Assembly: GCA_965215515.1 (NCBI GenBank)
Contig: OZ244057.1
Coordinates: 416,001-480,000 of the forward strand
DNA length: 64,000 bases
Direction: 5' to 3'
From: Oligoflexales bacterium
GTDB taxonomy: Bacteria; Bdellovibrionota_B; Oligoflexia; Oligoflexales; JAPPIL01
Shown here piece after piece: positions 10,857 to 40,685 of the stretch. The stretch's first letter is position 1. Each line of letters begins with the position of its first letter. The notes beneath the pieces were generated by a model that saw only the letters and a list, made by a program, of their open reading frames with translations, was not told the DNA's origin and made no database searches. The position numbers and the translations under genes are program-made.

Positions 10857-10934
10857 AGACGCACTAGCGAGGTTTTGTTTGACAACCATACGCCGTCTGT
10901 CCTACGCTGCCCCCTCTACCTCTTTGGTTGACAG

Positions 10935-12964: not shown

Positions 12965-13014
12965 CCGCGGTAGAGCAATCGTGCTGAAAATAACATTTCG
13001 GAGGGAGAGAACCG

Positions 13015-13743: not shown

Positions 13744-13760
13744 ACAACCTAGCTATGCGT

Positions 13761-13799
13761 TCGCGACTAGGGCTGCCACGCGGGCGGTTCTAGCCGCGA
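13761..13799 (+). terminator. Intergenic stem-loop (possible terminator or processing site)
   Basis: TCGCGACTAGGGCTGCC...GGCGGTTCTAGCCGCGA pairs with G-U wobbles and one mismatch; no immediate U-tract. Confidence 0.3.
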
Positions 13800-13826
13800 C
13801 ATCGCCGTTGTCGCTCAGCCAGTTTT

Positions 13827-15272
13827 TTGCTACACACCTGCCTGCCCATACATCGAGCGAGAGGCAGGGTTATCGCCATCAAACGTATCCTCATCGCTAA
13901 CCGCGGCGAAATTGCCGTGCGCATCGCACGTTCGGCACAGGAACTCGGCATCGAGACGGTTGCCGTCTACAACGCTGCCGACGCAGCCAGCGCACACCGT
14001 TTTACCAGCGACTATGCCGTGCAGTTGCACGGTGAGACGCTGGCCGAGACCTACTTGAACGCCGCCCTGCTCGTCACCGTCGCACAACGCAGCGGTTGCG
14101 ATGCCGTGCATCCTGGCTACGGGTTTCTGTCCGAGAACAGTGCCTTCGTGCAGGCCAGTGAGGAGGCAGGCCTAACCTTCATCGGCCCCCAAGCCGCCGC
14201 CGTGCGGCTACTAGGCGACAAGCTACGTGCCAAACAAACGCTCGCCGCGCACGGTATCCCCACCGTGCCTGGCGCGACACAGGCGTTACAAAACGTGGCG
14301 GAAGTCGACGCACCTCCCGATGCCTACCCGATTTTGCTCAAGGCTTCCCTCGGCGGAGGTGGTAAGGGTATTCGGGAGGTTAACAGCACCGCAGAGTTGC
14401 CCGCCGCCTTTGCGGCTTGTCAGCGCGAGGCACAGAATTATTTCGGCCACAGTGCTCTGCTGTGGGAAAAAAAATTAACCCAGCCGCGCCACATAGAGGT
14501 GCAAATTCTCGCCGACCAACATGGCAATGTCGTACACCTCTACGAACGCGACTGTTCCCTGCAACGCCGTTATCAGAAAATTTTAGAAGAGGCACCGAGC
14601 TGCTACCTCAACGCAGCGCAACGTGACCAGCTCGGTGCGTTGGCCGTGCAAGCCGCACGTGCTGTCAACTATCACGGTGTGGGCACGGTGGAATTTATCT
14701 GTGCCAGCCCCGACGAATGTTATTTTATGGAAGTAAACACCCGCATTCAAGTCGAGCACCCTGTGACCGAAATGGTGACGGGTATCGACCTTATCAAAGA
14801 GCAGATCGCCGTCGCGGCAAAGCAAGAACTACCTTTCACGCAAGCAGACATCGCGCTGCGTGGACACGCCATCGAAGTGCGCCTCAACTGCGAAGATGCG
14901 CAGCGGAACTTCGTCCCTTGCCCTGGCCTTATCACCGCACTCAGTTGGCCTGCAGGGGCGTTCGTACGGGTCGATTCGCACATCTATCGCGGGTATCGAG
15001 TACCTGCCGAGTTCGATTCCTTGCTGGCTAAAATCATCTGCCAAGGACGCGATCGCCGTGAGGCTATCGCCCGTACCTGCCGTGCCTTGCAAGAACTACA
15101 CATCGAAGGTGTGCCGACCACCGCAGCTTTTCACCGTCTGCTGTTGGAGCAAGAAGAATTTCGCACAGGTAATTTTGACACCGCTTTTCTCGAGCGCATG
15201 GCAACTCGTGATTTCGCCCCTGACCAGCATGCAGCACTGCTCGCCACCTTAAGCAGTCGAGGCACGGGATGA
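13827..15272 (+). CDS. accC: Biotin carboxylase
   Basis: ILIANRGEIAVR, HPGYGFLSEN, GGGGKG, RHIEVQ, ERDCSLQRR, FMEVNTRIQVEHPVTE. Start codon uncertain. Confidence 0.93.
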   Translation: MLHTCLPIHRARGRVIAIKRILIANRGEIAVRIARSAQELGIETVAVYNAADAASAHRFTSDYAVQLHGETLAETYLNAALLVTVAQRSGCDAVHPGYGFLSENSAFVQASEEAGLTFIGPQAAAVRLLGDKLRAKQTLAAHGIPTVPGATQALQNVAEVDAPPDAYPILLKASLGGGGKGIREVNSTAELPAAFAACQREAQNYFGHSALLWEKKLTQPRHIEVQILADQHGNVVHLYERDCSLQRRYQKILEEAPSCYLNAAQRDQLGALAVQAARAVNYHGVGTVEFICASPDECYFMEVNTRIQVEHPVTEMVTGIDLIKEQIAVAAKQELPFTQADIALRGHAIEVRLNCEDAQRNFVPCPGLITALSWPAGAFVRVDSHIYRGYRVPAEFDSLLAKIICQGRDRREAIARTCRALQELHIEGVPTTAAFHRLLLEQEEFRTGNFDTAFLERMATRDFAPDQHAALLATLSSRGTG

Positions 15273-15826
15273 AGTGGCAGGTACAAATTAACGCGGACAA
15301 TACCCACCACTGCTCGCTACCCGTGCAGTTGTGTGACGGTGTGCCGTTTGTGGCGGAAGTCGATGGAAAACAAGTGCACATTGTGCAACACGGGCGACAG
15401 GTATCGTTGTTGCGCGACATCGGCAGTGGTTTAAGTTTGGAAGAACACGTGACTATACTGACACAGAAGCGCTCGCCGTTACCGCACGGGCGACAGGCAG
15501 TACAGGTGTTATACGCGACGCACACAGGTGAGGTGCATAGCTGCCATGCCTGTGTGGGACTAGCGGCCGTGGTTACACCGCCGCGGCAGGCAGATAACAT
15601 GCCACCTGCGGAAATCATCTCGCCCTTGACAGGCAAGGTTATCAAGGTTTTGGTGGCGCGGGGGACGAGGGTACGGAAGGGTGCAGCGCTGCTGATAGTG
15701 GAAGCCATGAAGATGGAAAATATCGTGCACGCGGAAGGAGAGGGGGTAGTTGCCGCTCTCAACGTCAAAGTTGGCGACGCAGTGCGTAGCGGAGACGTGC
15801 TGTTAGTGTTACGGAGGGAGAATTGA
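15269..15826 (+). CDS. accB: Biotin carboxyl carrier protein
   Basis: SPLTGKV...EAMKMEN biotinylation motif. Confidence 0.88.
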   Translation: MKWQVQINADNTHHCSLPVQLCDGVPFVAEVDGKQVHIVQHGRQVSLLRDIGSGLSLEEHVTILTQKRSPLPHGRQAVQVLYATHTGEVHSCHACVGLAAVVTPPRQADNMPPAEIISPLTGKVIKVLVARGTRVRKGAALLIVEAMKMENIVHAEGEGVVAALNVKVGDAVRSGDVLLVLRREN

Positions 15827-16482
15827 ACGCTGATCCACAACAGGACGATGCTCGGTTGGAAAATTTTTTTGCCGCTGTTGCTGATCCGTGTGCGAACATC
15901 TGTGCAGCGGAGAAACAAGCGGCCTTGCGATTGTTGCAAAAAAAAGTCGCGGTTTGCACTCACTGCGATGAATTAGCTCGTCAGCGGCACAAGACAGTGT
16001 TCGGTGTCGGTCATCCTGCGCCAGAGATATGCTTCGTCGGCGAAGCCCCTGGCGCTGATGAAGACCACCAAGGCGAACCGTTCGTCGGCCGTGCGGGGCA
16101 GCTGCTAACCCGCATTCTGCAAGCCTGCCACTGGACACGAGAGGATGTTTACATCACTAATATTTTGAAGTGCCGTCCCCCTGGCAACCGCAACCCCCAG
16201 CCCGCTGAGGTCGCTAACTGTGTGCCTTACTTGCGCAAACAGCTGCGTATTATCCAGCCGCGGGTTATCTGTGCCCTAGGTGGTGTTGCCGCCCAAACTT
16301 TGTTGCACAGCGCAGAGAGCATCGGCAAATTGCGTGGTCGCTGGCATCGTTGGCAAGGTTTGCCGTTGCTTTGCACCTATCACCCCGCCTACCTGTTGCG
16401 TAATCCCTCGCAGAAGCGTGCTGTATGGGAAGACATGCAGGTACTGATGCGTTTCGTGAAAGGTGAAGCAAAGGCGACTTGA
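15823..16482 (+). CDS. Uracil-DNA glycosylase family 4
   Basis: [38 protein letters not shown]. Confidence 0.93.
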
Positions 16483-26252: not shown

Positions 26253-27386
26253 GTGGTCTCTGTGCACGGTAAGCCGCAGGTCTATTTTGACAACAATGCA
26301 ACGACGCGGCTTTCACGCAGAGTCGAAGCTTGGCTTAGGAGCGATTTTGTCGCTAGATACGCTAACCCCTCTTCCACACACCTGCTAGGGCAAGAGCTGA
26401 GCGCCGAGATCGACAATGATCGAAGCTATATAGCTGATTTTGTTGGTGCAAATCCAAGCAATATCTTTTTTACCAGTGGTGCGACGGAGGCAATTAACAG
26501 CATCTTGCATCCGCTGTTTTTACAGGAGAGTGGCATTGAGGTAGTGCTCACCTCGCGACTTGAACACAGTGCTGTCGATGGTTGTATAGAGAGATTGAGA
26601 CAGCATCATACCAAGGTGATCTACCTCAACAATGGTAGCAATGGCCTGCTCTGTCCCGAACATTTGGCGGCACAAGTGCGGGCACATCCGCATGCGTTAG
26701 TGACCTTGCTTGGTGCAAATAATGAAACTGGCGTTGTGCAAGATATTGTACAGCTTACCACAATATGCCAAGCACACGACTGTCTTGTGCATCTTGATGG
26801 TGTGCAGATGCTTGGCAAGTTGCCTGTCAATCTCACCGAGATGGGTGTTAACTTCGCTAGTTTTTCCGCACACAAGCTCGGTGGTTTGAAGGGCGTGGGT
26901 TTTACTTATGTGCGTGAGCCATCACAATTCACCCCACTTATCGTCGGCGGAGGCCAGGAAAGTGGCTTACGTGCTGGCACATACAACGCGGGTGGTATTA
27001 AGAGTTTGCGCTTGGCGTTAGAGGACACAAGACATTGGGATTTACAAAAAATAAAAAGCATCCGTGATGCTTTTGAAGATGAGATAAAAAATTTCAAAAT
27101 AAAAGCAGAGGTTAATTGCCAAAATGCTCCTCGCTTGTGCAACACTAGCAACATACATCTCCCTAGCTTGCCTGCTCAAGCAATAGTAATGGGGCTTGCT
27201 ACGCGAGGAGTATACGTTTCGGTAGGGTCAGCTTGTCATGGTGCAGAACCAAGCCGTGTGTTAATGGGGCTCGGCTTTGACAGAGACTATGCGGCATCGT
27301 CTTTGCGGTTTTCTTTTGCTGATTTTAACCGCAGTGCAGAAATTGAATATGCTACTGAAGTTTTGCGTGAGATATTAGATAGATGA
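26253..27386 (+). CDS. sspA: Cysteine desulfurase (SspA/DndA-like)
   Basis: YFDNNATT, FFTSGATEAIN, SAHKLGG (PLP Lys), GGGQESGLRAGT, SVGSACH; ATGA overlap with the DUF4007 gene. Confidence 0.88.
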   Translation: MVSVHGKPQVYFDNNATTRLSRRVEAWLRSDFVARYANPSSTHLLGQELSAEIDNDRSYIADFVGANPSNIFFTSGATEAINSILHPLFLQESGIEVVLTSRLEHSAVDGCIERLRQHHTKVIYLNNGSNGLLCPEHLAAQVRAHPHALVTLLGANNETGVVQDIVQLTTICQAHDCLVHLDGVQMLGKLPVNLTEMGVNFASFSAHKLGGLKGVGFTYVREPSQFTPLIVGGGQESGLRAGTYNAGGIKSLRLALEDTRHWDLQKIKSIRDAFEDEIKNFKIKAEVNCQNAPRLCNTSNIHLPSLPAQAIVMGLATRGVYVSVGSACHGAEPSRVLMGLGFDRDYAASSLRFSFADFNRSAEIEYATEVLREILDR

Positions 27387-28252
27387 AATTTGGTGGTCAC
27401 GAAACATTTCATCTGCGTGATAATTGGCTGTTCAAAGGCCTGCGAATGCTAGCAAACGAGGGCGATTTGTTCAGCGATAGAGACGAAGCGATTGCGGTGC
27501 TCGGTGTTGGCACAAACATGGTAAAGTCAATGCGCTATTGGCTGTTAGCGACAGAGTTTGCCACAATTACAGACGGAACACTTACCTCGAGCCATATCGG
27601 CAAACTAATGCTGGCACGTGATCCATACTGCGATTGGCTAGGCTCGGCGTGGTTACTACATTATTCGTTAGCTTGTAACAAGAGCTATGCCACTACGTGG
27701 TTTTGGTTTTTCAATAAGTTTGGTATAAGCGAGTTCACCCCCGAATCAGCGGTGTATTATCTTGAAAACTACTGCTTACTCAACAACAAAAAAATAAACC
27801 GCAACACCCTCACTAAAGACATCAACACGCTTTTACGCATGTATGTTGAGCCAATCTTTGATGGACGCAGAACACCAGAAGATGTTGATGTTTGTCCTTT
27901 AACGAGGCTGTCCCTAATTAAGAAAGATACTAGCAATACTTATCGCTTAAATACACCTGATATTGATGAATTACCTGTGCAAATTTTTGGCTATACTCTA
28001 GTGCAGTTTTGGACACAGCAGTTGCAAAAGGTTGCACAGTTTTCTTTTGATGAGTTGCTTAAACGTGATTGCTCCCCTACGAAAGTATTTTGCTTGAACA
28101 CTGAGCGCACCATAGATCTACTGAATAAACTGGTGGAAAAGTTCCCACGTTGGTTTAGCTATCACCATACAGGAGGATTTTTTTCTATTGAAATAAATAC
28201 TAAAGTGCGGGAAGAAAAATTGCTAGACAGCTACTATGGAGAGGCAACTTGA
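27383..28252 (+). CDS. sspB: DUF4007 protein (SspB-like)
   Basis: KFGGHETFHLRDNWLFKG, LGVGTNMVKSMRYWL, DPY...WLLHY, WFWFFN. Confidence 0.88.
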   Translation: MKFGGHETFHLRDNWLFKGLRMLANEGDLFSDRDEAIAVLGVGTNMVKSMRYWLLATEFATITDGTLTSSHIGKLMLARDPYCDWLGSAWLLHYSLACNKSYATTWFWFFNKFGISEFTPESAVYYLENYCLLNNKKINRNTLTKDINTLLRMYVEPIFDGRRTPEDVDVCPLTRLSLIKKDTSNTYRLNTPDIDELPVQIFGYTLVQFWTQQLQKVAQFSFDELLKRDCSPTKVFCLNTERTIDLLNKLVEKFPRWFSYHHTGGFFSIEINTKVREEKLLDSYYGEAT

Positions 28253-31200
28253 AAAATATTTTTGTAAAAATAAAACGTAATTTTTCTCGCTCTAGCAATA
28301 TAAAGATTGATTTTAGCGACGATATAAATATCAAGAACATTGTATTGTCCGATAAGTTACAACGTGCTTTCGTTGATATCACTACTTCTATGCTCAACGA
28401 TAAGTCTAATCAGCGTGTGCATGTCTTAGCTGGCACACCTGGCACGGGCAAGTCAACTTTTGCTTTATTTACGGCACACAATCTTACTGCAAATAGCAAA
28501 GCAAAAGTTACCGCAACAGTTAAAAAACAGCGTCATATTGCTTCTCCTGATTTTTACAAAATATGGTCAGCGGTGAAGAATGTTAACTACCTACCTGTCT
28601 TTCTCAATGGCGATGAGGGTGAGATAGAAGAGGCTTTTCATGCGGCACTCAACGATGCTTTTGTTGCACATGGCTGGCGCAAGGAATTTGAACAACTGTC
28701 TATGAGCTGCTCGATACGGGCGGTAGCAATCATCAATGGCTGGCAAAAGAATTATCCCGATAAGCATCAGGAGTTGCAAAATTTTATTGCCGCACAGCCA
28801 ATTGGTAGCTTCCCAAAATTTATGCGTGCGTTACGTCAACACAGACGCTATGCACAGAAACTTTTTGTCGAGGCTTATCGTCAGATTACTGGTGGGGCAA
28901 GTGTAGGTTCGTATCGTCATGGTCAAGTTGTGGCTCTGTATCGTGGTGCTGTGAAATTTTTGCAGGAAGCAAAGGGGTTTGAGGGTATCTTTATCATCTA
29001 CGATGAGTTTGGCAAATATCTTGCCCGCGGAGTGCGCCAACCACATGATTTTGATCTACATTTTCTACAGGATATAGCAGAGCTGTGCAACAAGAGCGGC
29101 AAGCTGCACCTTCACATGCTGTTGATTACGCACTTGCCTGTTTCACAGTATACAACACAGTTGCCCAATGCTATTCAACAGGAATGGAAAAAAATTGAGG
29201 GGCGATTTCAGCAATCTTCTTTCAACAGCGGCTACGAGTCAAGCTATACACTGGTTGCAGCGGTGTTTTCCTCTGACATAAAACGGCGCAGCAAAAAGCT
29301 TTGGCAACACTTGTGTGCCTTGACCCGCGAGTGGCAGACACACAACAGAGCTTCAGGCAACATCGCCTCAGCGTGTGATTGTGCTGCAGAAACACTGAGC
29401 GACTGTTATCCCCTGCATCCGTCGGTGTTTGCTTTATTGCCGTTGTTGAGTGAAAAGGTTGCTCAAAATGAGCGCACCATGTTTTCTTTTCTTACCCGTA
29501 ACGAAGAGTTTTCATTGCCACATTTTCTGGAAAAAACGGCACTTAGCGAGAACAATTTACACTTTATGCGCCCCTATGATCTCTATTGCTACTTTCGTCC
29601 TTTGCTTGCTAGTGATGTTGGTATAGGTGGTGCTTGTAAGATAGCTATTGTTGTTGATAGTGTGTTAAACAGCCTTGATGCTGAGCAGAGCTGTGCGCAA
29701 GACATCGTTGCTGTGTTAGGTATTGCTGCCATTATCAACAATCGTTCGCTGCTTAAGACAAGCGAGCAATCACTCTTATCATTGCTGCATGGATTACATG
29801 ACTCGCAAGACATTGACGACACGCTGAAATTTTTACAGAAAAACAAAATGATCATCTTCGACAAAATAAAAACAGAATTCAGTCTTTTTGAGGGTTCTCC
29901 TGTTGATTTGCGAGAGGAGTTGAATAAAATCAGACAAAAAAGGCTTACAACGGATGGCTATACCAAAAATTTTCGAGACAATTTTCACGTTAATTTTGTC
30001 GTTCCCAAAAAATATAATTACGACAACGGTATCACGAGATTTTTTCGTGAACAACTACTATCTTTAGAGGAACTTGCCGCAGGTAAATATCGTGTTGACT
30101 ACAGCAAAGAAGACGGGCGAGTTTTTTATGTTGTGCCCTTCAACAACGAAGAAGTTCTGCGTATTAAAGATTATTGTCAACAAGCATCGTTAGCGTCTGC
30201 TCTGTTTGTAACTACTGATAAGCCAGTAGAAATAACTTCCGAGTTACTTGAGTTACAGGCAGTGACACAGCTGTATTCACACAAAGAGCTGCTGGCTACA
30301 GGAACGATGGTCAGCAAGGAGCTTAACCATTATCGTGAGACAGCACGTGAGTTGATCAGGAAAGCGTTGCGCCGTGTGCGCTCTAATCTGCATATGGGCG
30401 TTTCAGTTTTTTATCGTGGCAAGTGTGTAGAGGAAGGGGTAAAGACGATGGCGAGGTTAGCACAACTTGCCAGTCAGGTATGTACTGATGAGTATAGTAG
30501 TTATCCGTGCTTTTACAATGAGATGATTAACAAGCATCGTGTTAGCAACCCGATAATTCAGGGACGTATTCGTTTTGTCGAGGCTTGCCATAACAACTTT
30601 GCTCAACCTCGCTTTGGTATTGAGGGCGGCGGGCCTGAGTTTGCTATGTATCAAGCACTGATACGCACTAACAGCTTTGTATCCAAGGGTAGCAAGTGTG
30701 GATTTAAGCAGGGCAGTGCTCTGTTACCATTATTTAAAGATTTTTGTTCTCATCTACAAGCATCCGAGCGATCACCTATTAGCATGTTTGAGTTGATTGA
30801 GCGTTGGCAAAAACCACCGTTTGGGGTGCGTTTAGCATTGGTCCCTATCTATCTTAATATTTTTAGCAAGATGTCGCCCTCGCCGCTCAGTTTTTTCTAC
30901 GAGGGTCTTTATGTCAGCAAAGTTGATACCGATATGTTTGAGGCTTTGATCAAGCAACCCAAAAAATACAACCTACGCATGGTGATTATAGATACTAAAA
31001 AACGCAGCTATCTTCATGAACTTGCTAGTAAGTTTGCAGCACATCGACCCGATGCTTCATCTGTGGATAAGTCAACACTTGATTTTATTGCCGTTGCCAA
31101 GATTATCACGCGCTTTTATGCTCTCATCCCTAATTACACTCGCCGACACCCTTCATTGACAACGAGGGAAAAGCAACTGATCACTGCCCTTGATGGGTTT

Positions 31201-31965
31201 CGGCAGCCAGAAAATTTTATTTTAACAGAGTTACCGCTGTTGTATGCCAAGAAGCCGTTTAGTGATCTGGCTTTGCAGGAGCGGTCGTTATTTTTGCAGG
31301 CGTTGGAGCACGACATCGCTTCTTTATTCGGGCGTTATGTTGAGCTGATCAAGTGTTTAGCGCGGCATCAGAAGTCTGCTTTACAAAAACTACAACGCCT
31401 GAGTGGCAAGGTTGTTGTTGAAGAAATTACACGCGGCGCACCGCTGGCAACGTATTGGCAGCAGGTTGTGGGTAATTTTCCTGCGGATGTGTTGCTGTTT
31501 CCTTTTAGTGCCGTGACTACACGCTTTGTCAATCGAGCTATACAGTTAGGCAGTGATGCCAGCAATCAGCAGGCAGTTGAGAATATTGCCGATGCCTTGA
31601 CAGGTGCTAATCCCAAGAACTGGAGCGAGAAAGGCGAGACGTTGTTCAACTTCAATTTACGCCGCACTATTGCCGAAATTGAAGAAGTCAGCTGTTTGAA
31701 GGCACACAACAACACCAATCTTGTGAGAATTTCCAGTCTCCACCGAGCAGACAGCGAACCAGTCGTGCGTGAAATAGTGCGTGCCGAATTGCAACAGGAC
31801 AAGCACAAGCGTCTGCTAGAACGTTTCTGTCGCGAACTATCACACCTGCCAGACGAAGAAAAGAACAGTATCCTTCTGGCTGTGCTTGAACGCGTCAACA
31901 ACAAGGAACTACCCTCGCCATCAAAAATCACGGGCGAGGCCAGCATCAGTGCAGCTTGGGGTTGA
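28249..31965 (+). CDS. sspC: Large P-loop ATPase (SspC-like)
   Basis: GTPGTGKS (Walker A), IIYDEFGKYL (Walker B), EWKKIEGRF, YPLHP, AQNERTMFSFL, PPFGVR; overlaps the sspB stop. Confidence 0.85.
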   Translation: MKNIFVKIKRNFSRSSNIKIDFSDDINIKNIVLSDKLQRAFVDITTSMLNDKSNQRVHVLAGTPGTGKSTFALFTAHNLTANSKAKVTATVKKQRHIASPDFYKIWSAVKNVNYLPVFLNGDEGEIEEAFHAALNDAFVAHGWRKEFEQLSMSCSIRAVAIINGWQKNYPDKHQELQNFIAAQPIGSFPKFMRALRQHRRYAQKLFVEAYRQITGGASVGSYRHGQVVALYRGAVKFLQEAKGFEGIFIIYDEFGKYLARGVRQPHDFDLHFLQDIAELCNKSGKLHLHMLLITHLPVSQYTTQLPNAIQQEWKKIEGRFQQSSFNSGYESSYTLVAAVFSSDIKRRSKKLWQHLCALTREWQTHNRASGNIASACDCAAETLSDCYPLHPSVFALLPLLSEKVAQNERTMFSFLTRNEEFSLPHFLEKTALSENNLHFMRPYDLYCYFRPLLASDVGIGGACKIAIVVDSVLNSLDAEQSCAQDIVAVLGIAAIINNRSLLKTSEQSLLSLLHGLHDSQDIDDTLKFLQKNKMIIFDKIKTEFSLFEGSPVDLREELNKIRQKRLTTDGYTKNFRDNFHVNFVVPKKYNYDNGITRFFREQLLSLEELAAGKYRVDYSKEDGRVFYVVPFNNEEVLRIKDYCQQASLASALFVTTDKPVEITSELLELQAVTQLYSHKELLATGTMVSKELNHYRETARELIRKALRRVRSNLHMGVSVFYRGKCVEEGVKTMARLAQLASQVCTDEYSSYPCFYNEMINKHRVSNPIIQGRIRFVEACHNNFAQPRFGIEGGGPEFAMYQALIRTNSFVSKGSKCGFKQGSALLPLFKDFCSHLQASERSPISMFELIERWQKPPFGVRLALVPIYLNIFSKMSPSPLSFFYEGLYVSKVDTDMFEALIKQPKKYNLRMVIIDTKKRSYLHELASKFAAHRPDASSVDKSTLDFIAVAKIITRFYALIPNYTRRHPSLTTREKQLITALDGFRQPENFILTELPLLYAKKPFSDLALQERSLFLQALEHDIASLFGRYVELIKCLARHQKSALQKLQRLSGKVVVEEITRGAPLATYWQQVVGNFPADVLLFPFSAVTTRFVNRAIQLGSDASNQQAVENIADALTGANPKNWSEKGETLFNFNLRRTIAEIEEVSCLKAHNNTNLVRISSLHRADSEPVVREIVRAELQQDKHKRLLERFCRELSHLPDEEKNSILLAVLERVNNKELPSPSKITGEASISAAWG

Positions 31966-31978: not shown

Positions 31979-34459
31979 TTAGTCTTCACTTAGCTGCCGT
32001 ATTTTTTCTTCGTTAAGTCCCAACAAAAACTCGACATAATGGTTGGAAAAAAGATTTTCTATATATTCCCTGATTTCAATGACATTTTTATCTTGATTCT
32101 CTTCTTGTGATATCACAACCTTTTCTTTTTTAGTGATAGTAAAAAGAAATAGTGCATGGTAGTAAACAGTCATGAAATAATTTTTCTCATTCATTTTAAT
32201 TTTTTCTTCACTGGGATTTTTGTCTTTGTGGTTAAACTTTTTGAATACTGAACTATCCATATTAATGAATATTTGTTCTAGCTTGTCATCAACAAGTAAG
32301 TACACTACCTTGTTGTAATCCATAGTCCCGCCCATGTTTTCTATATCACTCCAGCATTTAGCTTTTGAGTCGTTATCGTTCTCCTTGTAAACTCTCACTG
32401 CCGGTGGCAACTTCAAATTAGCGGAATTAGTCTCTGTTCTTCTTGGTGTCTTTTGTAGGGCAGCAGTGGGTTCGCTTATCTTCACCCAAAAAATTTCGTC
32501 AAACTCTCCTTCAGGAGCGTTAGGGCTGCTTAGGCTCACCTTAATTTTTGCCTCATCACCAACCATGAGCTGCTTGTTGGGTGATAAGTGAAGTTTTATC
32601 TTGCCCTCTTGTGGGCTGCTCTTCGTTACAGTGAAAACATCCTCAATCTTTTCTGCTCTTCCTGTAGTGCAATCACTATCAGTATCGTTAGAGTTAAAAT
32701 CAAGCAAGCCAACATCCATATTGCCAGCCTCTTCAACACGATCAAAATAATTGTTTTCCACATCGGTATCGAAATAAATAGTTTTCTCACCTCCTCGTGG
32801 CACACTCACTGCATTAGTATCGTCACGTTTGCTGCGAAGCTTGAAATGTGCGGGAAAACGTTGGGGAGAAAATGGTTTCTCATCTTCGTGTCGCTTCTTT
32901 TTTATAGTTTTATAGGTGGGAAATATATCCCTACCCGCCTTACTTTTACCTGACTTTATAACTTGACTACACAGCCTTGCCAGTTCTTCACTCAACGGCA
33001 GATTGTGTGAAGTGGATTCGATTAGCTCCTCATTACCCTCATTGCCTGAAACAATAGATGCTTTACGCCGCTCTGAAATTTCTTTTAAACGTCCATCTTT
33101 GAGCTCACTTTTAAGAAACTCTCGCAGCTTTTTAGTTTCTTCACCGCCCTTCAGACGATCACGGGAAGCCATAAACAGCTCATCACGAAAACTTCTTTGC
33201 ACATCAGTGCAATCAACGTGAATGAGAAGATAGTCATTGAGCAAGTTCATCTTCAGCGACATGCTGATGAACTCACTAGTGAGATGGCCATGTACTTGAC
33301 CGTTGATAGAGAACAGTACTGACATGTTGTTCTTAAAAAACTCTCGTCGTATACTTTCTTTGGATTCTTTAGCGGTTTTGCCATCAATTTTTGCTTTAAA
33401 CACATAGCAGGTAATCTTTGTTGCTCCGATAGTCCTGTTACTCAAGCTAAGTGAAAAACTATCTTCAACATATTTATTCCCTTCCTCTTCCTCACTATTC
33501 TTGTCTCTGTTATCGCCCTTTTTTTCAAGCTTTCTCTTTAGACCATACAAGCCTCTCTTTAGGCTACTTTTAGGGTAACGTTCTTCCTTTTCAATGGTAT
33601 AAACAGGCAGAACAGGTTCAAATAGGTACTCGTTGATGCTTGCATTGAGGTCTCTAGATATATCAGATATTCCTTTAAGGGTGTAGGAATATAACTTGAT
33701 GATTGTGCCAGTAGTGAAGCTTCTCTTGAATAAGTTCAGCTCAAGGGTATCTACCGCAAAAGATGGTATTTCACCGTCAATTTTAAGGTATTCATACCAA
33801 GTATTTTTCTTGTTTTTCTCCTCTTCTGCAGTCATAGGGTGCTTTCTGATCAAGGTGAAGCCAAACTTGCCAGTGTCATCATATTTTTTTGAACCGATCA
33901 ATTGATAGCGTTTTTTGCCACAAAAGACGATAGCACCACTGCCACCCATATTGTATTTACCTTGCACAAACTGAATTTCATTCTTGTTGCCACGCACTAG
34001 AGACAGAAACGTATTCTCAAAATCATCTGGGTGCTGTCCTTCACCATCATCGTAAATTATCAAAGATGTGTCTCTCCTCTTCCCATCCGCTAATATTTGG
34101 ATATTCTCTGCCTGCTTATTTCTATTTTCAGTTAGATCCCAGTCCTTATATTCAGGGAAAAATTTTTCCTTTGCCTCTATCATCGACTGAGGAGCGTCTT
34201 TAGATTTGGGGTCAATACCTGCCTCTAAACATTTTTTAGTAAGCACTGCATCAATTGAGTTGGTGATTTTTTCTATCAATGCCGCTACAGGGTTAGCTTG
34301 CTGGTTCTCTACAATGCCATAGTTATTATCATTTCCACCGAGTGGCTGCCAATTACAGTCTGGCAATGCGTCAATGCTTTGCACAACCTTATCAACATCA
34401 GCTTCAGTGCCAGCGAAGTAGAGACGATTGAAAAGATCTTTCAATTCAGATTCTTGCAT
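31979..34459 (-). CDS. Uncharacterised 826-aa protein with N-terminal GHKL (Hsp90/MutL/MORC-like) ATPase
   Basis: EKITNSIDA (N box), IYDDGEGQ (G1), QGKYNMGGSG (G2), TGTIIKL (G3). C-terminal half not recognised. Confidence 0.75.
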   Translation of the reverse strand: MQESELKDLFNRLYFAGTEADVDKVVQSIDALPDCNWQPLGGNDNNYGIVENQQANPVAALIEKITNSIDAVLTKKCLEAGIDPKSKDAPQSMIEAKEKFFPEYKDWDLTENRNKQAENIQILADGKRRDTSLIIYDDGEGQHPDDFENTFLSLVRGNKNEIQFVQGKYNMGGSGAIVFCGKKRYQLIGSKKYDDTGKFGFTLIRKHPMTAEEEKNKKNTWYEYLKIDGEIPSFAVDTLELNLFKRSFTTGTIIKLYSYTLKGISDISRDLNASINEYLFEPVLPVYTIEKEERYPKSSLKRGLYGLKRKLEKKGDNRDKNSEEEEGNKYVEDSFSLSLSNRTIGATKITCYVFKAKIDGKTAKESKESIRREFFKNNMSVLFSINGQVHGHLTSEFISMSLKMNLLNDYLLIHVDCTDVQRSFRDELFMASRDRLKGGEETKKLREFLKSELKDGRLKEISERRKASIVSGNEGNEELIESTSHNLPLSEELARLCSQVIKSGKSKAGRDIFPTYKTIKKKRHEDEKPFSPQRFPAHFKLRSKRDDTNAVSVPRGGEKTIYFDTDVENNYFDRVEEAGNMDVGLLDFNSNDTDSDCTTGRAEKIEDVFTVTKSSPQEGKIKLHLSPNKQLMVGDEAKIKVSLSSPNAPEGEFDEIFWVKISEPTAALQKTPRRTETNSANLKLPPAVRVYKENDNDSKAKCWSDIENMGGTMDYNKVVYLLVDDKLEQIFINMDSSVFKKFNHKDKNPSEEKIKMNEKNYFMTVYYHALFLFTITKKEKVVISQEENQDKNVIEIREYIENLFSNHYVEFLLGLNEEKIRQLSED

Positions 34460-34728: not shown

Positions 34729-35331
34729 GTGAAAAGGAAGACATCGCTACAAATGATGCAGGATGCTCTCAAGCCTGGCGGGGTATATCGTCGCTCCGAT
34801 TTTACTAAGCTGTCGTCTAACGTAGACCGAGACTTAGCCCAGCTGGTTGAGAACCGCAGTCTTCAGAGATTGCAACGTGGTATCTACCTATGTCCAAAAC
34901 ATACGATTTTTGGTCAAGACATACCAGACGAGAAAAAACTGCTATACAAGTTTCTGAATGACAATCGGTTTATTGTCTACAGCCCTTGCATGTTCAATAT
35001 GCTTGGGTTCGGCACTACCCAGCTGTATAATAAAGTAGTTGTTCTCAACTACAAAAGACAAGGCAAAATAGCAGTTGGCGATCGCGTTTTCTTTTTTCGC
35101 CGTCGCAAAAGAGTGCCTCGTACTGCAACCAAAGAATTTTTGTTAGTAGAAATGCTCAACTGTCGTTATGAGCTAGCCGAGGACATGCCGTGGGTTATAG
35201 GAAATATGCAGAAGCAATTACACCGATTTGATCGCAAGCTTCTTAAACGATCCGCTAAACTTTTTGGCAAAAGATCAACCCAAAAAACTGTAACACAACT
35301 CCTACAAGGACAGATACGTGTATCTCCATAA
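34729..35331 (+). CDS. abiEi: AbiEi-like antitoxin/transcriptional regulator (wHTH)
   Basis: VYRRSDF...VDRDLAQLV...LQRLQRGIY; FNMLGFGTTQL; overlaps the downstream AbiEii gene. Confidence 0.75.
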   Translation: MKRKTSLQMMQDALKPGGVYRRSDFTKLSSNVDRDLAQLVENRSLQRLQRGIYLCPKHTIFGQDIPDEKKLLYKFLNDNRFIVYSPCMFNMLGFGTTQLYNKVVVLNYKRQGKIAVGDRVFFFRRRKRVPRTATKEFLLVEMLNCRYELAEDMPWVIGNMQKQLHRFDRKLLKRSAKLFGKRSTQKTVTQLLQGQIRVSP

Positions 35332-36283
35332 CCGCAAGGACTTCAAAACCATAGTTAGATTATCTGCCGCTAAAAATAACGTCTTCAACCCCTATTTAGC
35401 AGAAAAAGACTACTGGATTATGCATTGCTTGCACAGCCTTTCATGTCTTGGTTTGCAGTTAGAACTAAAGGGGGGCACGTCTCTATCAAAGGGCTATGGC
35501 ATAGTTGAAAGATTTTCAGAAGATATTGACATAAAAATAGAGCCTGATGAACCTGTAACAGGTCTTAAGGTATACACAGGTAAAAATCACGACAAGAAAG
35601 CACACCGTCAGTCTAGAAAAAATTATTTTGATTGGCTTGCACGTGCTTTACATGGCAAAATTAATGGCATAACTAGTGTTGCAAGAGCTGAAAGCCTTGA
35701 CGACAAAAAGTTCAGAAACGGTGCTATTTTGTTGAGTTACAAATCACATTTCCGCGAAATAGAAGGGATAAGGCCTACCATCCTTCTAGAGGTTGGCTTT
35801 GACAAGACAGTTCCCAACAGCAAAAGAGACATCACTTCGTGGACTTTTGATGAAGGGCACGCCGCATTAGGTGATGCTATTACCGATAACAGAGCAAAGA
35901 ATATGCTCTGTTACGACCCAAGATATACGTTTGTGGAAAAACTGCAAGCAATTGTCAGCAAATACACTACATATAAAAATAACAAGCATGGTGTCAATCT
36001 TCCCAACAATTTTTTACGTCACTACTACGATATCTACTATTTGTTAGGAGTAAAAGAAGTTGTAAATTTTATTAATACTGATGAGTATAAGCGATACAAG
36101 CAAGAACGTTTCCGAAGTCATGACACTGTTATTAAGAATTGCGAGGGATTTAGTCTCAAAGATACCGAAGAGCGGAAAATATTCATGCACAGCTATCAAA
36201 CATCATCTGCTCTCTACTATAAAGGGCAGATCCCACTTGACAAAATACTAAAAAGAATCGCTGACTTTCTTCACATCCTCTAG
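35318..36283 (+). CDS. abiEii: AbiEii/AbiGii family nucleotidyltransferase toxin
   Basis: EKDYW, LKGGTSLSKGY, RFSEDIDI, TFVEKL, RHYYDIY. Confidence 0.9.
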   Translation: MYLHNRKDFKTIVRLSAAKNNVFNPYLAEKDYWIMHCLHSLSCLGLQLELKGGTSLSKGYGIVERFSEDIDIKIEPDEPVTGLKVYTGKNHDKKAHRQSRKNYFDWLARALHGKINGITSVARAESLDDKKFRNGAILLSYKSHFREIEGIRPTILLEVGFDKTVPNSKRDITSWTFDEGHAALGDAITDNRAKNMLCYDPRYTFVEKLQAIVSKYTTYKNNKHGVNLPNNFLRHYYDIYYLLGVKEVVNFINTDEYKRYKQERFRSHDTVIKNCEGFSLKDTEERKIFMHSYQTSSALYYKGQIPLDKILKRIADFLHIL

Positions 36284-36459: not shown

Positions 36460-37281
36460 ATGATGAGCTATCTTAATGTTGAAGAGCAGGCACGCCACAT
36501 CGTTTCGTTGTCAGGGGGTAAGGACTCGACTGCACTAGCGGTGTATTTGAAAAACAAAATCCCCAACTTGGAGTATGTTTTTTGTGATACGGGGGCTGAG
36601 TTGGTCGAAACCTATGATTATTTGGATCGGGTCGAATCTTATTTGGAACGCAAGATTGTGCGCCTCAACAGCGGCAAGACGTTTGAGGAATTTCTCGATA
36701 AGCACCGCCAGTTTTTGCCTTCGCCACAGGCGCGTTGGTGTACGGCAGAGATGAAAATCAAGCCGTATGAGGACTATATCGGCAAAGATCGCTGCTACTC
36801 CTACATTGGCATTCGTGCTGATGAGCGGCGGGGTGGCTATATCTCTAGGCTACCGAACATCACGCCTGTATATCCATTCAAAGATGATGGCATCAATCGG
36901 GCAGGTGTTTACAAAATTCTGGAGGATTCAGGGCTAGGATTGCCAAAGTATTACGAATGGCGGTCACGTTCAGGTTGCTATTTTTGTTTTTTTCAGCGTA
37001 CCATTGAATGGGTTGGCTTGCTGGAGAGGCATCCCCAGCTATTTGCTAAAGCTGAAGAGTTTGAGCGACAGGGTTATGCAGGTGATGACGTAAAATTTAC
37101 GTGGGTGCAAGGAAGAACACTTGACTGGATCAGAGAAAACAAGGATAAGATCAAGGAATCGCACCGCATGAGGATGGAGAAGGCAGCTGCGATGCGGAAG
37201 AGCACTAATATTCACGATGTGTTTGCCGAAGCTACCGATCAGGAAACGGCCACCAAGCCTTGTGATATATGTGAGATATGA
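36460..37281 (+). CDS. sspD: PAPS-reductase family protein (SspD-like)
   Basis: SLSGGKDS (PP-loop), FCDTGAE, LPSPQARWCT, GIRADE, RSRSGCYFCFFQR, C-terminal CDIC. Confidence 0.88.
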   Translation: MMSYLNVEEQARHIVSLSGGKDSTALAVYLKNKIPNLEYVFCDTGAELVETYDYLDRVESYLERKIVRLNSGKTFEEFLDKHRQFLPSPQARWCTAEMKIKPYEDYIGKDRCYSYIGIRADERRGGYISRLPNITPVYPFKDDGINRAGVYKILEDSGLGLPKYYEWRSRSGCYFCFFQRTIEWVGLLERHPQLFAKAEEFERQGYAGDDVKFTWVQGRTLDWIRENKDKIKESHRMRMEKAAAMRKSTNIHDVFAEATDQETATKPCDICEI

Positions 37282-38750
37282 CTACTGCTGACGGCGAGCG
37301 TACCATTCACAGAGGGAGAACAGCTATTGAACGCCATTCCTGTTCGCAGCCAGTCAGACTTGCCTTGCGTGATGCGATCATCAGGCGTGAGTTAAGTTTC
37401 TTTGATTATGGCTGTGGTCGTGGGGCTGACGTATCTTTTCTCGCGACTCAAGGTGTGGCGGCGAATGGCTACGATCCTTGTTTTTTTCCACAAGCCCCTA
37501 AGACTGCTGCCCATGTCGTTAATCTTGGCTACGTTATCAATGTCATCGAAGACCATACCGAGCGTATCTCAGTGATCAAAGATGCCTTTGCTCTTGCCCA
37601 ACTGTGCCTAATCGTTGCAGCACAAACAAAGGCCGCGGCTATCAGTGGTGCAGCTGTTTTCAATGATGGCTATGTCACCAAGCGCAACACTTTCCAAAAG
37701 TACTACGGTCAGAACGAGCTACGTGACTTACTGCACAAGGTGCTGAACATTACTCCTTACCCCGCGGGGCCTGGTATCTTCTATATTTTCAAGGACGAGA
37801 AGGCACGCAATACTTATCTCGCAGTGAGATATGACTCGACAAGGTTGTTGCGTTTCAACAGCAACCGCACGTGGCAACGTCAACAGGTGCAAGAGTTACG
37901 GGAACAACGGTTGCAAAATTCTGACGCAGCTGGTCCGCTAATTGAATGGGTTAGCATACATGCTCGTTTTCCTACTGATTTTGAGTTTCCAGCACTAGAC
38001 AAAATCCTTGCTCTAGGAATATCATATAAATTTTTGCAAGAGTGGGTCTTTGCTAATCTCGATCAAGAAATTTTGGCAACCACACGTAAGATTCGGCAAC
38101 AAGATATTCTGCTAATGCTTGCTTTGACACGTTTTGAAGGAAGACCTAAGCTAAGTGCCTTGCCTGACAGGGCCAGACATGACATCAAATCTTTTTTCAA
38201 CAGCTACCAGAATGCCTGTGAAGAGGCTGACCGTTTGCTGTTCAGTGTTGGCAAGGTTGATACGATTCGCCAAGCAATTGAACAAGCAACAGTAGGCAAA
38301 AAACTTCCTGACAGCCTCTATGTGCATACTTCCGCCGTCCCCTACTTACCCTTGGCCTTGCAGGTCTTTGTCGGTTGTGGGCGTGCTGTTGTCGGTGATA
38401 TGGAGGGTGACGTAATTGTAAAAATTCTCAAAAAGGCAACTTCGGTGTCTTTTTTGCTTTACCGCAACTTTGACACCGACCCACACCCAGAACTGTTATT
38501 GTCAACGAAGGTTGATTTGCGCAGTGGACACTCCTACCCACGTGATTACAGCAAATCGGATAATCCGCCCATACTGCATCGCAAGGAAACCTTCGTCACC
38601 AAAGACTACCCACACTATGAAGAATTTTGTCGTACTACAGCACACGAAGAAAAACTTGGCTTGCTGAGCAGAAACGGCATTGGCTTTCGCAAAAGCTGGC
38701 AGAGGTTACTCACCGAAATCAGCGAGGGCAATCAGCCGCCCACTGCTTAA
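37278..38750 (+). CDS. DNA phosphorothioation-associated putative methyltransferase
   Basis: HRGRTAIER...SQPV, FDYGCGRGAD, GYDP, VVNLGYVINVIED..ER, DGYVTKRNTFQKYY, GKKLPDSLYVH, FDTDPHPEL, ILHRKETFV; ATGA overlap with sspD. Confidence 0.85.
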   Translation: MTTADGERTIHRGRTAIERHSCSQPVRLALRDAIIRRELSFFDYGCGRGADVSFLATQGVAANGYDPCFFPQAPKTAAHVVNLGYVINVIEDHTERISVIKDAFALAQLCLIVAAQTKAAAISGAAVFNDGYVTKRNTFQKYYGQNELRDLLHKVLNITPYPAGPGIFYIFKDEKARNTYLAVRYDSTRLLRFNSNRTWQRQQVQELREQRLQNSDAAGPLIEWVSIHARFPTDFEFPALDKILALGISYKFLQEWVFANLDQEILATTRKIRQQDILLMLALTRFEGRPKLSALPDRARHDIKSFFNSYQNACEEADRLLFSVGKVDTIRQAIEQATVGKKLPDSLYVHTSAVPYLPLALQVFVGCGRAVVGDMEGDVIVKILKKATSVSFLLYRNFDTDPHPELLLSTKVDLRSGHSYPRDYSKSDNPPILHRKETFVTKDYPHYEEFCRTTAHEEKLGLLSRNGIGFRKSWQRLLTEISEGNQPPTA

Positions 38751-38799: not shown

Positions 38800-40071
38800 C
38801 TATCCATCCGTCCAGCCAAGCCAATCCTCCGCGAGCGTTTCCCACACTGCATGCCCAAGCCGTTCACCTCTTTTCTTGATAGCTTCGTCGTTGAGGTGGT
38901 TGTTTTTGTCGAGATAGCTATCACCATAGGAAATTACCTCTCTCAAGATTTCAAGATAAGGCATACCATCACCAGTGTCTTTCCTCTCTAGGCATTGTTC
39001 GTATATTCTTCTTTTGGAGACAAAGTTTTCTTTCCCTGCTTTGGCGTTAATCTTTTGTGGAAGCAGAACTAAGTTGCCAATTCTGTTGATTGTCTTGTAG
39101 CTTTGTGGGACAATGTGCTCTATCGATTTGTAGTCATATTCTTCATAGTTTTGTATAGTGAGAAACTTCAATTTTGATTTTACAAAAGCTTGTGTTTCTG
39201 GGTCAAAATGCATTTTATGAAATGCAACAAACAAAACAAACCTCGTAAATTTTATTCGCTTATAGATGTTAATGTCTGCGAATTCTTTAATCCACTCTCC
39301 TCTAGTCATATCTCTATTTTTCCATTTCTTTAGTAGACATTTTCTGAGCTCGTTTCTTAATCCAGCAGCATCGTAGCCTTCACGAAAGAGAGCTTCTGTA
39401 ATATTTTTGTACTGGTTATCTATTCTATCTGTACCAGCGTCAGCAGCAACCCCACGCCAAAGACAGCTAAATGCAGCACATGCCTTGACTACCTCGTCTC
39501 TCTCCCTATTTTCTGCAAATTTAAACAGGATAGGAATGACTCTGTCATGAGCTATGGACTTCAGAAATTCAAAGCAGACGGCGGCTTCTCCAGTCGTAAA
39601 TATACTTTTACCGTTCGCTTTTTCCCAGTTGTTTTCTATAATAAAGTTATGGATATCACAAATACTGTCAATGTAATCCGGAATTTTATCTTCCATCTCA
39701 TTTGATATTTTATCGAGAATAACTCTCTTATCACGTAGACTAGTGAATTTATCTGTATTCAACTCCTCATGCATCATGCTTAGGAACAGAAGCAATCTAT
39801 CTGTGTACTTGTTCTGTTTGTTTTTTTTCATTTTCATATTACTAAGTGATGTTTCAACTTTATTTAGCCGATCTGCTATTTTTTCCTTTTGTGTCTTTTT
39901 GTAAATACGAGATTTTAGCATTTCAAATGCAGTTAGTGGCTCTCCTGTTGAGTTGAAGGTATTGAATATATCAATAGCATAGTCCTCAGAAAGCTCGCCT
40001 TGAACAACAAGAAAGCAAAACTGTGATCTGTCAAGAACATACGAGGCATATTTTAGAAAATCACCTCCCAT
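38800..40071 (-). CDS. sspE: SspE-like protein, C-terminal part (end of DUF262 plus DUF1524 nuclease)
   Basis: FNTFNSTGEPLTAFE, AFSCLWRG...GTDRID..YK, SIEHIVPQ, IGNLVLLP..IN. The frame is open upstream to ~40146. Confidence 0.75.
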   Translation of the reverse strand: MGGDFLKYASYVLDRSQFCFLVVQGELSEDYAIDIFNTFNSTGEPLTAFEMLKSRIYKKTQKEKIADRLNKVETSLSNMKMKKNKQNKYTDRLLLFLSMMHEELNTDKFTSLRDKRVILDKISNEMEDKIPDYIDSICDIHNFIIENNWEKANGKSIFTTGEAAVCFEFLKSIAHDRVIPILFKFAENRERDEVVKACAAFSCLWRGVAADAGTDRIDNQYKNITEALFREGYDAAGLRNELRKCLLKKWKNRDMTRGEWIKEFADINIYKRIKFTRFVLFVAFHKMHFDPETQAFVKSKLKFLTIQNYEEYDYKSIEHIVPQSYKTINRIGNLVLLPQKINAKAGKENFVSKRRIYEQCLERKDTGDGMPYLEILREVISYGDSYLDKNNHLNDEAIKKRGERLGHAVWETLAEDWLGWTDG

Positions 40072-40076
40072 TTCTT

Positions 40077-40685
40077 CTATTTCTTCCCCAAAAATACTGG
40101 GTATTTTAAAAATACTGGGTATTTTTTTGCATCGATGTTGGTTATTTCATTACTCTTAAAAAGATATTTCAGAATATCTGCTTCAAGAGCTAGAGCGCTA
40201 TCATGTTCGACACTGCGCTCCCTTTCCAGTCTTTCAGTGGTGGATAAGGCGTTACAAATAGTATCAACTATTTTTTCCTCTTCAATCTTTTTTCTAATTA
40301 AAATTTCCTTTTTGTTATTATCAGTTTCCTGCTCTATGGTCTCTTTGAGATGTTGTCCCCCCGAAGTAAGTTCTTTTTTAATAAGCTTCAACAAAATTAA
40401 AAATGAAGTTATCCTCTGCTGTCCATCAATCAGAATATATTTCTTCTCCATGCGTCTTCCTTCAACTTTCTCTGCCACAATTATTGAGCCAAAGAATGCT
40501 GGTAAATTTTGTTCTTTGCTATCTCTTATGGTTGTCATTAAATCTTTAAAATTTTCACTAATCCACGAATAAGGTCGCTGATAGACAGGAATGATAAAAC
40601 GATTTTTGAGAATTTCCCTTAGCGAAATAAGTCTTGAGTTCCTGTTTTCGTTCTCTACGATAATTATTTCTGCTTCACTACTCAC
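40077..40685 (-). CDS. sspE: SspE-like protein, N-terminal DUF262 part (out of frame with the C-terminal part)
   Basis: IPVYQRPYSW, FFGSII, LIDGQQRITS; ends KKYPVFLKYPVFLGKK* just after an A7 run. Confidence 0.78.
   Translation of the reverse strand: MSSEAEIIIVENENRNSRLISLREILKNRFIIPVYQRPYSWISENFKDLMTTIRDSKEQNLPAFFGSIIVAEKVEGRRMEKKYILIDGQQRITSFLILLKLIKKELTSGGQHLKETIEQETDNNKKEILIRKKIEEEKIVDTICNALSTTERLERERSVEHDSALALEADILKYLFKSNEITNIDAKKYPVFLKYPVFLGKK
40090..40125. repeat. 18-bp tandem duplication of a quasi-palindromic unit at the sspE frameshift
   Basis: AAAAATACTGGGTATTTT x2; the second unit runs into the T7 tract at 40122-40128. Confidence 0.95.

Follow-up and report, generated by a model that had tools for sequence, protein, structure and literature searches.

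Phosphorothioate (PT) is, to our knowledge, the only natural modification known in the DNA backbone. SspABCD–SspE is reportedly a PT-sensing defence system, a description attributed to Xiong and co-workers in 2020, and the characterised systems of this kind have no methyltransferase. Here we analysed a stretch of 64,000 nucleotides (nt), referred to as the window, from an Oligoflexales bacterium (GenBank assembly GCA_965215515.1, contig OZ244057.1, positions 416,001–480,000 of the forward strand). The window has recognisable sspA, sspB, sspC, sspD, and sspE genes, and in contrast to the characterised systems it also has a gene for a putative S-adenosylmethionine (SAM)-dependent methyltransferase that overlaps the end of sspD. 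It differs further in that the sspD–methyltransferase pair lies 4.5 kb from sspABC and sspE is frameshifted. The methyltransferase is assigned to the family TIGR04096 (dnd_rel_methyl), which travels with the Dnd and Ssp PT writers, and with one Ssp/BREX-like cluster, even when it is not linked to them. A functional tie between this enzyme and PT is highly probable.

The nearest precedent for such a pairing is a phage anti-Dnd protein in which, according to a preprint by Piel et al. (bioRxiv 10.1101/2021.05.05.442762), a PAPS-reductase domain is joined by fusion to a Dam-type N6-adenine methylase. In both cases a PP-loop module (DndC/SspD-like) is paired with a SAM methyltransferase in a conflict over PT. 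The phage enzyme, however, is a canonical Dam methylase, is fused to its partner and serves counter-defence, whereas the window enzyme is non-canonical, is encoded by an overlapping gene and belongs to the host, beside the PT writers. Passages of Rakesh, Aravind & Krishnan (2024, PMC10853773) describe DNA cytosine methylases in DndDE and CxC–ABC-ATPase neighbourhoods; these are likewise methylases recruited to PT-type cores, suggesting marks other than PT. They differ from the window enzyme in that they are canonical enzymes, acting on cytosine C5 or N4, and frequently take the place of the PT enzymes. The paper has 24 methyl-related passages, and the 12 of them that were examined do not mention the TIGR04096 type. 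A methyltransferase beside dndBCDE in Fischerella is the subject of a passage suggesting that such genes may act independently (PMC12914056); the passages concerned do not treat the TIGR04096 family. Cyanobacterial dnd clusters without dndFGH have also been described in a further study (PMC8569181), which does not use the word “methyltransferase” and uses “methylase” twice, one passage being about the general origin of DNA methylases. A literature search on TIGR04096 found no paper characterising the family; supplementary neighbourhood tables may list the gene.

A preliminary description of the window, made from the letters of the sequence, had assigned the methyltransferase to the TIGR04096 type, placed an ATGA overlap at the sspD junction, and listed three motifs in the protein. 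The overlap was borne out on reading the sequence, all three motifs are present in the translation (Table 1), and the family assignment proved correct. The protein matched the TIGR04096 hidden Markov model over nearly its full length, from positions 2 to 466 of 478, with 456.9 bits (cut-off 150) and an E-value of 7.9e-137, and a search of the whole source genome (2.18 Mb, one contig) returned only this locus. The protein fell below every Pfam threshold, with a weak match to Methyltransf_23 (E = 0.0021). The upstream gene was identified as sspD by PADLOC (PDLC02782, 3.5e-104) and by the Pfam domain PAPS_reduct (1e-10). As judged from sequence, the methyltransferase is a regular member of its named family: it is full-length, has the same three-module build as its homologues, and keeps the same company of PT genes. 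It differs from most members found, which follow dndE in cyanobacterial dndBCDE operons or are unlinked long forms, in that its gene overlaps sspD in the Ssp system of a non-cyanobacterial genome.

Gene overlaps of 4 nt are common in operons, and the overlap of sspD and the methyltransferase gene, taken alone, is weak evidence of a functional tie. From the arrangement, the methyltransferase is predicted to be translationally coupled to, or co-expressed with, SspD. Promoter and terminator predictions between positions 36200 and 38900 were at the level of shuffled sequence (4 vs 3.2 and 4 vs 2.9). A predicted SspD–methyltransferase complex scored 0.05 and 0.01, well short of the mark of 0.32, which speaks neither for nor against binding.

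The distribution of the family supports a strong link to PT. In 301 sampled cyanobacterial genomes, TIGR04096 was searched for at E ≤ 1e-20 and DndC (PDLC02662) at E ≤ 1e-40. The methyltransferase was found in 97 genomes (96 above the family cut-off) and DndC in 83; both were present in 82, the methyltransferase only in 15, DndC only in one, and neither in 203. Four of the 15 methyltransferase-only genomes encode SspD (E ≤ 1e-110). Another three have DndC-like sequences: in two of them a fragment of DndC stands at the start of a contig, and the third has a 344-residue DndC-like open reading frame (ORF) about 330 nt from the methyltransferase gene. A PT-type PP-loop gene is therefore present in 89 of the 97 carriers. 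None of 14 control genomes contained the family. In a collection of 131 genomes from the phylum of the source organism, TIGR04096 exceeded its cut-off in four (G000, G047, G049, and G059), all of which have SspD, and SspD was found in six (the same four, G053, and G090).

For 36 pairs of methyltransferase and DndC on the same contig, among the matches listed, the distance between the two genes was compiled by hand. Fifteen pairs lie within 20 kb of each other, and all of these have methyltransferase frames of 483–571 residues. The remaining 21 are separated by 21 kb to 3.7 Mb, and in 20 of them the frame is at least 611 residues long. The unlinked long forms lie 0.3–3.7 Mb from dndC in 20 of the 36 pairs, and one is at 21 kb. 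Short forms thus sit in the dnd operon, and long forms are unlinked yet still co-occur with DndC, which nearly all of their genomes encode. Co-occurrence without linkage is hard to explain by hitch-hiking in a genomic island.

Gene order was compared in a broader set. A word-indexed protein search in which 8000 candidates were scored yielded 4512 proteins with E ≤ 0.001, and the best matches were mostly cyanobacterial proteins of 680–810 residues. The sample for gene order consisted of 83 loci, of which three came from one search and 80 were the best among 549 confirmed in another, with the window itself (L004) dropped; neighbouring ORFs within 7 kb were clustered, and each cluster was named from one representative. 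DndC, DndD, or DndE genes stand beside the methyltransferase in 61 of the 83 loci, usually in the order dndB, HNH gene, dndC, dndD, dndE, methyltransferase. The gene immediately before the methyltransferase is a co-directional dndE in 60 loci, and the median distance between the two is about 51 nt. Ssp genes occur in eight loci. In one of these, the locus L003, the methyltransferase adjoins SspB-like, SspC/BrxC-like, and weakly PglZ-like genes and a BrxL–kinase fusion (6111–15968), which by their sequences appear to form a hybrid cluster of Ssp and BREX-type-4-like parts. The other 14 loci have neither Dnd nor Ssp neighbours, and in two of them the upstream flank is shorter than 300 nt. Five genomes of this group were tested, and all five encode a full DndC at another place in the genome (E ≤ 5e-165; split in one). 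In Nostocales loci, the MFS transporter, GNAT, and HEAT-repeat genes downstream of the methyltransferase are conserved in their order, with nothing evident to tie them to PT.

In the preliminary description, the coupling to SspD was taken to suggest that the enzyme acts in the PT pathway. Action in the PT pathway is strongly supported by the co-occurrence and gene order given above. The association is not SspD-specific: the methyltransferase gene follows dndE in 60 of 83 loci, stands divergent from sspB in other Ssp loci (L002, L063, and L064), or, in many cyanobacteria, is unlinked from dndC. Base methylation, S-methylation of PT, and a dual self-mark, the three chemistries suggested in that description, are all candidates.

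Adjacency of sspD and the methyltransferase gene does recur outside the window. The same 4-nt overlap is present in L001 (sspD 9186–10004, methyltransferase 10001–11473) and in L100, which represents the same-genus genome G047 (sspD 8803–9621, methyltransferase 9618–10706); the window and these two loci come from one taxonomic family, so the recurrence of the overlap is not independent. The IMG/VR contig L104 has sspC, sspD, and the methyltransferase gene with a 29-nt gap, and in another IMG/VR contig, L108, sspC and sspD are followed by one 199-residue ORF and then a long-form methyltransferase. The order sspD, methyltransferase is the same in the window, L001, L100, L104, and L108, while in G059 a long-form methyltransferase gene shares a contig with sspD at a distance of about 11 kb. 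The neighbourhood of Ssp genes and methyltransferase is thus recurrent, with an exact partner gene that varies. The arrangement in L100 is an uninterrupted sspA–sspB–sspC–sspD–methyltransferase series with a convergent, intact sspE. Its methyltransferase has 362 residues, with the core joined almost directly to the C-terminal domain and the helical middle region gone; because this form does without the middle region, the two outer modules appear to be the minimal unit.

The methyltransferase core was examined in an AlphaFold2 model built on 19 homologues (mean predicted local distance difference test (pLDDT) score, 81.8). The best VIA-align match of the core was 3sm3_A (Z = 14.1, root-mean-square deviation 2.8, 150 residues), followed by 2p8j_B (13.8), 7bgg_A (13.7), Trm9 (13.6), and 5ufm_A (13.6); sequence identity to the fold neighbours was 10–15%. 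Foldseek matched 5ufm_A with an E-value of 4.2e-04, and 277 chains reached Z ≥ 8 in VIA-align. Both programs matched only this core of the protein (approximately residues 7–175). A PDB sequence search with the protein gave no match at E ≤ 1. The best hit of a PDB profile search (E = 0.055) covered the glycine-rich loop only, and N-terminal matches to flavivirus NS5 and FtsJ-like proteins were not significant (E = 0.25–1.8). The glycine-rich motif I (D43-x-G45-x-G47-x-G49) and D66 at the end of strand 2 are those of a class I methyltransferase. The residues conserved without exception among the 19 homologues, whose identity goes down to 36%, are D43, G45, C46, G47, G49, D51, D66, N82, G84, Y85, N88, E91, Q116, D130, G131, R136, T138, F139, Q140, K141, and Y142. 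The TIGR04096 family is set apart by its insert D130-G-x-x-T-x-R-x-TFQKY and by its two extra domains. The protein is, on these features, predicted to be an intact SAM-methyltransferase-type enzyme.

Structure prediction had been proposed as a way to place the NLGY motif. In the model, N82-x-G84-Y85 is at the C-terminal end of strand 4 (residues 78–84), which puts the motif in the region of the active site. By class I topology, this would be the motif IV position beside the methyl group of SAM. The N-x-x-Y spacing is kept, and a chemistry similar to that of DNA amino-methylases is possible. A KsgA/Erm-like (RrnaAD) reading of NLGY was also considered; the KsgA of the same genome (L111, 1417–2250) has NIPY at this motif.

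The middle helical region of homologues matched the Pfam family PF18780 (HNH_repeat), with 32.9 bits for P0193, 29.7 for P0249, 28.3 for P0237, and 26.6 for P0058 (cut-off 26). HNH_repeat is a repeat associated with homing endonucleases, and we assume that the HNH_repeat-like middle region binds DNA.

The C-terminal domain was predicted with good confidence (Table 1), and it appears to have no solved structural relative: the best VIA-align match among 48,161 chains had Z = 3.7 and the best Foldseek match in the PDB had E = 0.1, and a weak or missing match is no proof of a new fold. A search of BFVD gave one viral entry of 1232 residues (E = 3.6e-06) and nothing annotated, and a features search of the ESM Atlas gave 0.80 for unnamed clusters, which is chance level. 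In 24 copies of the domain G340, H350, F398, P404, and K436 are invariant, and H403, H434, K382, and Y395 nearly so. A phospholipase D (HKD) reading of LHRKE...D was rejected, with wrong spacing, an aspartate that is not conserved, and no phospholipase D fold among the 50 best listed chains. Long forms of the methyltransferase carry an extra, N-terminal copy of the C-terminal domain. In Planctomycetota, stand-alone copies lie beside the methyltransferase gene on the opposite strand, at 8962–9567 (reverse, 201 residues) in L002, with a 97-residue ORF in between, and at 3608–4276 (reverse, 222 residues) in L003. A profile search for this domain among 1.84 billion representatives yielded 2935 proteins with E ≤ 0.001. 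When 43 proteins of odd length from the 150 best matches were scanned against Pfam, seven had Methyltransf_23, three HNH_repeat, and 33 no match. Because only Methyltransf_23 and HNH_repeat were found beside it, the C-terminal domain seems to be tied to this methyltransferase.

The C-terminal domain also occurs in phages without the methyltransferase domain. Among 50,697 phage records the only match was LR745208.1 (E = 2e-16), and further copies are present in phage-like contigs. In the IMG/VR phage contig L110 the methyltransferase-like ORF is 3 kb upstream of the C-domain ORF, with the gene for a ParB–DNA-methyltransferase directly before the latter (Table 1). Both halves are kept when split, beside an anti-restriction-type methylase, and this fits a role in DNA-modification conflicts.

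On this basis we propose that the enzyme is an accessory SAM-dependent component of PT modules acting on DNA at PT sites, a reading that we hold to be evenly balanced between true and false. The non-catalytic modules would bring the methyltransferase core to DNA sites that are phosphorothioated or being phosphorothioated. The core would then transfer a methyl group to the DNA at the PT site, with a base amino group favoured as the acceptor by way of the invariant N-x-G-Y, and the outcome would be a second chemical mark on PT-bearing DNA or a tuned PT mark. That the substrate is DNA at all is at best slightly favoured. A DNA base is a tentative assignment and the PT sulfur or backbone an improbable one; of the specific groups, the base amino group was rated somewhat above the PT sulfur. 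N6-methyladenine (6mA) and PT can reportedly share a consensus sequence, an observation ascribed to Chen and co-workers in 2017.

Several observations weigh against this proposal. In the reconstitutions described in passages of Wang et al. (2021, PMC8092258), sspBCD with iscS and sspE alone make PT and defend; because published Ssp systems work without the methyltransferase, we regard it as accessory and not as a core PT enzyme. At the thresholds used, 8 of the 97 cyanobacterial carriers have neither DndC nor SspD (genome completeness is not given), and the Fisher value for the co-occurrence (6e-57) overstates independence, since the genomes within a phylum share ancestry. The 50 best fold neighbours of the core are methyltransferases of small molecules, peptides, thiols, or transfer and ribosomal RNA, with no DNA methyltransferase among them, and their Z values of 11–14 are nearly tied and discriminate poorly. 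The core has no (D/N/S)PP(Y/F/W) motif IV, as N82-L-G84-Y85 occupies the place without Pro-Pro. It also has no conserved cysteine of C5 methyltransferases: the sole PC (P67–C68) comes after strand 2, C68 is not conserved, and there is no ENV. Kinship with KsgA/Erm was rejected, with an hhalign probability of 0.33% and an E-value of 0.18 for the alignment of an unrelated stretch. The window protein itself has no match to HNH_repeat or any other Pfam family in its middle region, and that region is dispensable, as it is missing in the 362-residue form of the same genus.

Among other targets, a protein or small molecule of the sulfur relay is a doubtful candidate. The methyl group would go to a thiol or persulfide carried by SspA, SspD, or DndC, or else to a by-product of the sulfur chemistry, and the enzyme would regulate or detoxify the pathway instead of marking DNA. 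Such a role suits the small-molecule and peptide methyltransferases among the fold neighbours, and likewise the predicted translational coupling to SspD and the dispensability of the DNA-binding-like middle region in one relative. The similarity to small-molecule class I enzymes (3sm3_A, 2p8j_B, 7bgg_A, 5ufm_A, and Methyltransf_23) is one of fold and does not imply the substrate. A relay protein as the target sits poorly with a partner gene that varies between sspD here, dndE in most loci, and none for the unlinked long forms, leaving no fixed partner. Moreover, HNH_repeat in the homologues points to DNA, and the phage copies adjoin a DNA methylase gene.

Methylation of the PT sulfur by the core, with the His/Lys-rich C-terminal domain binding or resolving the S-methyl triester, is unlikely. 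The outcome would be a new backbone mark, or PT erasure or turnover after loss of methanethiol. PT sulfur is readily alkylated, and an enzyme with this target could be expected beside every kind of PT writer seen (Dnd, Ssp, and Ssp/BREX-like) rather than with one protein partner, as is the case. Consistent with it are the missing base-methylase motif in the core and the thiol or chalcogen methyltransferases among the fold neighbours (TehB, 3m70_A, Z = 11.5; bacillithiol methyltransferase, 9ri2_B, Z = 11.7; Ecm18-type, 4nec_A, Z = 12.1), but these neighbours are tied with dozens of unrelated methyltransferases. Two required activities would also fit the joint retention of methyltransferase and C-terminal domain as two genes in L110, and the conserved residues H350 and K436 (invariant) and H403, H434, K382, and Y395 (near-invariant) could take part in the second of them; they could equally serve binding alone. 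A literature search on S-methylation of the DNA-backbone phosphorothioate found no precedent. The more specific version, in which the C-terminal domain reads or resolves the S-methyl triester and the enzyme is a “methyl-PT” writer or a methanethiol-releasing PT eraser, is quite unlikely in our estimate; it would explain both the pairing with every kind of PT writer and the separate phage genes for the two parts.

That the gene is an independent passenger, an unrelated enzyme or orphan modification gene hitch-hiking in a defence island, is very improbable: defence islands do mix systems (in this one there are also the two AbiE genes and an ATPase gene of unexplained role), methyltransferases beside PT genes “may function independently” in the words of a passage of PMC12914056, and eight cyanobacterial carriers have no detectable DndC or SspD, but nearly all DndC-positive cyanobacterial genomes (82 of 83) carry the methyltransferase, co-occurrence with DndC persists at 0.3–3.7 Mb in 20 of the 36 same-contig pairs, all four methyltransferase-positive genomes of the own phylum have SspD when only 6 of 131 do, and the gene overlaps sspD by 4 nt.

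Two puzzles of PT biology bear on the proposed action on PT-bearing DNA. One is partial occupancy: only about 10–15% of consensus sites carry PT, yet there is no self-restriction (PMC11931770). The other is the retention of dnd modification genes without dndFGH in cyanobacteria. The methyltransferase, present in 82 of the 83 DndC-bearing cyanobacterial genomes sampled and predicted to be coupled to sspD here, is an obvious candidate for the missing player. It may add a second mark of self, adjust the PT mark or remove it, or serve the sulfur relay. Should methylation of the PT sulfur prove true, the enzyme would be the first known to methylate the DNA backbone. The finding in the window is ordinary in itself, since both the family member and its context are typical, and its value lies in the question that it raises for the family, which is sharpened by the 82/83 co-occurrence, the split into linked short and unlinked long forms, and a C-terminal domain without a solved relative.

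Table 1 Features of the methyltransferase gene and its product, of the ssp island in the window, and of the phage contig L110. Positions are in nt of the window unless L110 is named.
Feature	Position	Strand	Residues	Basis and remarks
sspD	36460..37281	+	273 aa	PP-loop ATP pyrophosphatase, SGGKDS loop, C-terminal CxxC; PADLOC and Pfam
Methyltransferase gene	37278..38750	+	490 aa	NCBIfam TIGR04096 (dnd_rel_methyl)
ATGA stop/start overlap	37278..37281	+		ATG 37278-37280, TGA 37279-37281
Methyltransferase domain, class I SAM fold	37278..37832	+	1-185	AlphaFold2 model, fold matches
Motif DYGCGRG	37404-37424	+	43-49	Translation
Motif NLGYVINVIE	37521-37550	+	82-91	Translation
Middle helical region	37890..38276	+	~205-333	Helices 207-336 in model
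C-terminal alpha/beta domain	38277..38747	+	334-490	LYVHxS, HP, NPPxLHxK; model pLDDT 91.9
Motif LHRKETFV	38574-38597	+	433-440	Translation
sspA, cysteine desulfurase	26253..27386	+		Pfam Aminotran_5 1.6e-57; overlaps sspB start by 4 nt
sspB (DUF4007)	27383..28252	+		PADLOC SspB 4.7e-67; Pfam DUF4007 6.9e-74
sspC, BrxC-like ATPase	28249..31965	+	1238 aa	PADLOC SspC 2.1e-143
ORF with N-terminal HATPase_c_3 (GHKL ATPase) region	31979..34459	-	826 aa	Pfam HATPase_c_3 5e-06
abiEi-abiEii toxin-antitoxin pair	34729..36283	+		PADLOC AbiEi 8.3e-63, AbiEii 3e-60
sspE (DUF262 + DUF1524/HNH), split by frameshift	38800..40685	-	202 aa and 423 aa	Pieces 40685-40077 and 40071-38800
L110 methyltransferase-like ORF	52-1008			tblastn E 1e-06 to residues 5-107
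L110 ParB-DNA-methyltransferase gene	2086-3852
L110 C-domain ORF	3951-4484			Directly after ParB-DNA-methyltransferase gene
L110 portal gene	6421-7866

SspA, SspB, SspC, SspD, and an SspE-type DUF262/DUF1524 effector were all found in the locus by PADLOC and Pfam (Table 1). The gene for the effector, sspE, is convergent to sspD and the methyltransferase gene and is split into two pieces, which match intact orthologues of 636 residues in L001 and 638 residues in L100 in frames -2 and -1. Its identification rests on PADLOC (SspE, 4e-49 for the C-terminal piece) and on the Pfam domains GmrSD_N and GmrSD_C, and the break coincides with a tandem duplication of about 17 nt at approximately 40090–40125. 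The split effector may be inactive. Since its modification genes look intact, the genome may retain PT marking in the absence of the effector; alternatively, the frameshift may have arisen in assembly.

The ATPase gene and the AbiE pair fill the 4.5 kb between sspABC and sspD. The 826-residue ATPase ORF had no PADLOC or NCBIfam match and no PDB sequence match. A counterpart with 76% identity is present at the same place in L001 (6507–8978, reverse) and absent from L100, and the ORF may encode an effector that belongs with this Ssp island and has escaped recognition. AbiEi had no tblastn match in 84 loci and AbiEii had one. L001, taken as the same record as G049, has the reverse ATPase gene and an intact sspE, and from its ATPase gene to its sspD there is no AbiE ORF; nor is there one from sspC to sspD in L100. 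The AbiE pair is an insertion between sspC and sspD in the source genome only, outside the Ssp system. No transfer RNA gene is present anywhere in the window and thus none marks an integration site; an integrase gene was not looked for. Housekeeping genes border the island: an accD-like and a Mur-ligase-like gene at one end, UPF0102 at the other. Between positions 24000 and 44000, the GC content is 36–48% in the ssp island (~26.2–40.7 kb) and 50–60% in its flanks.

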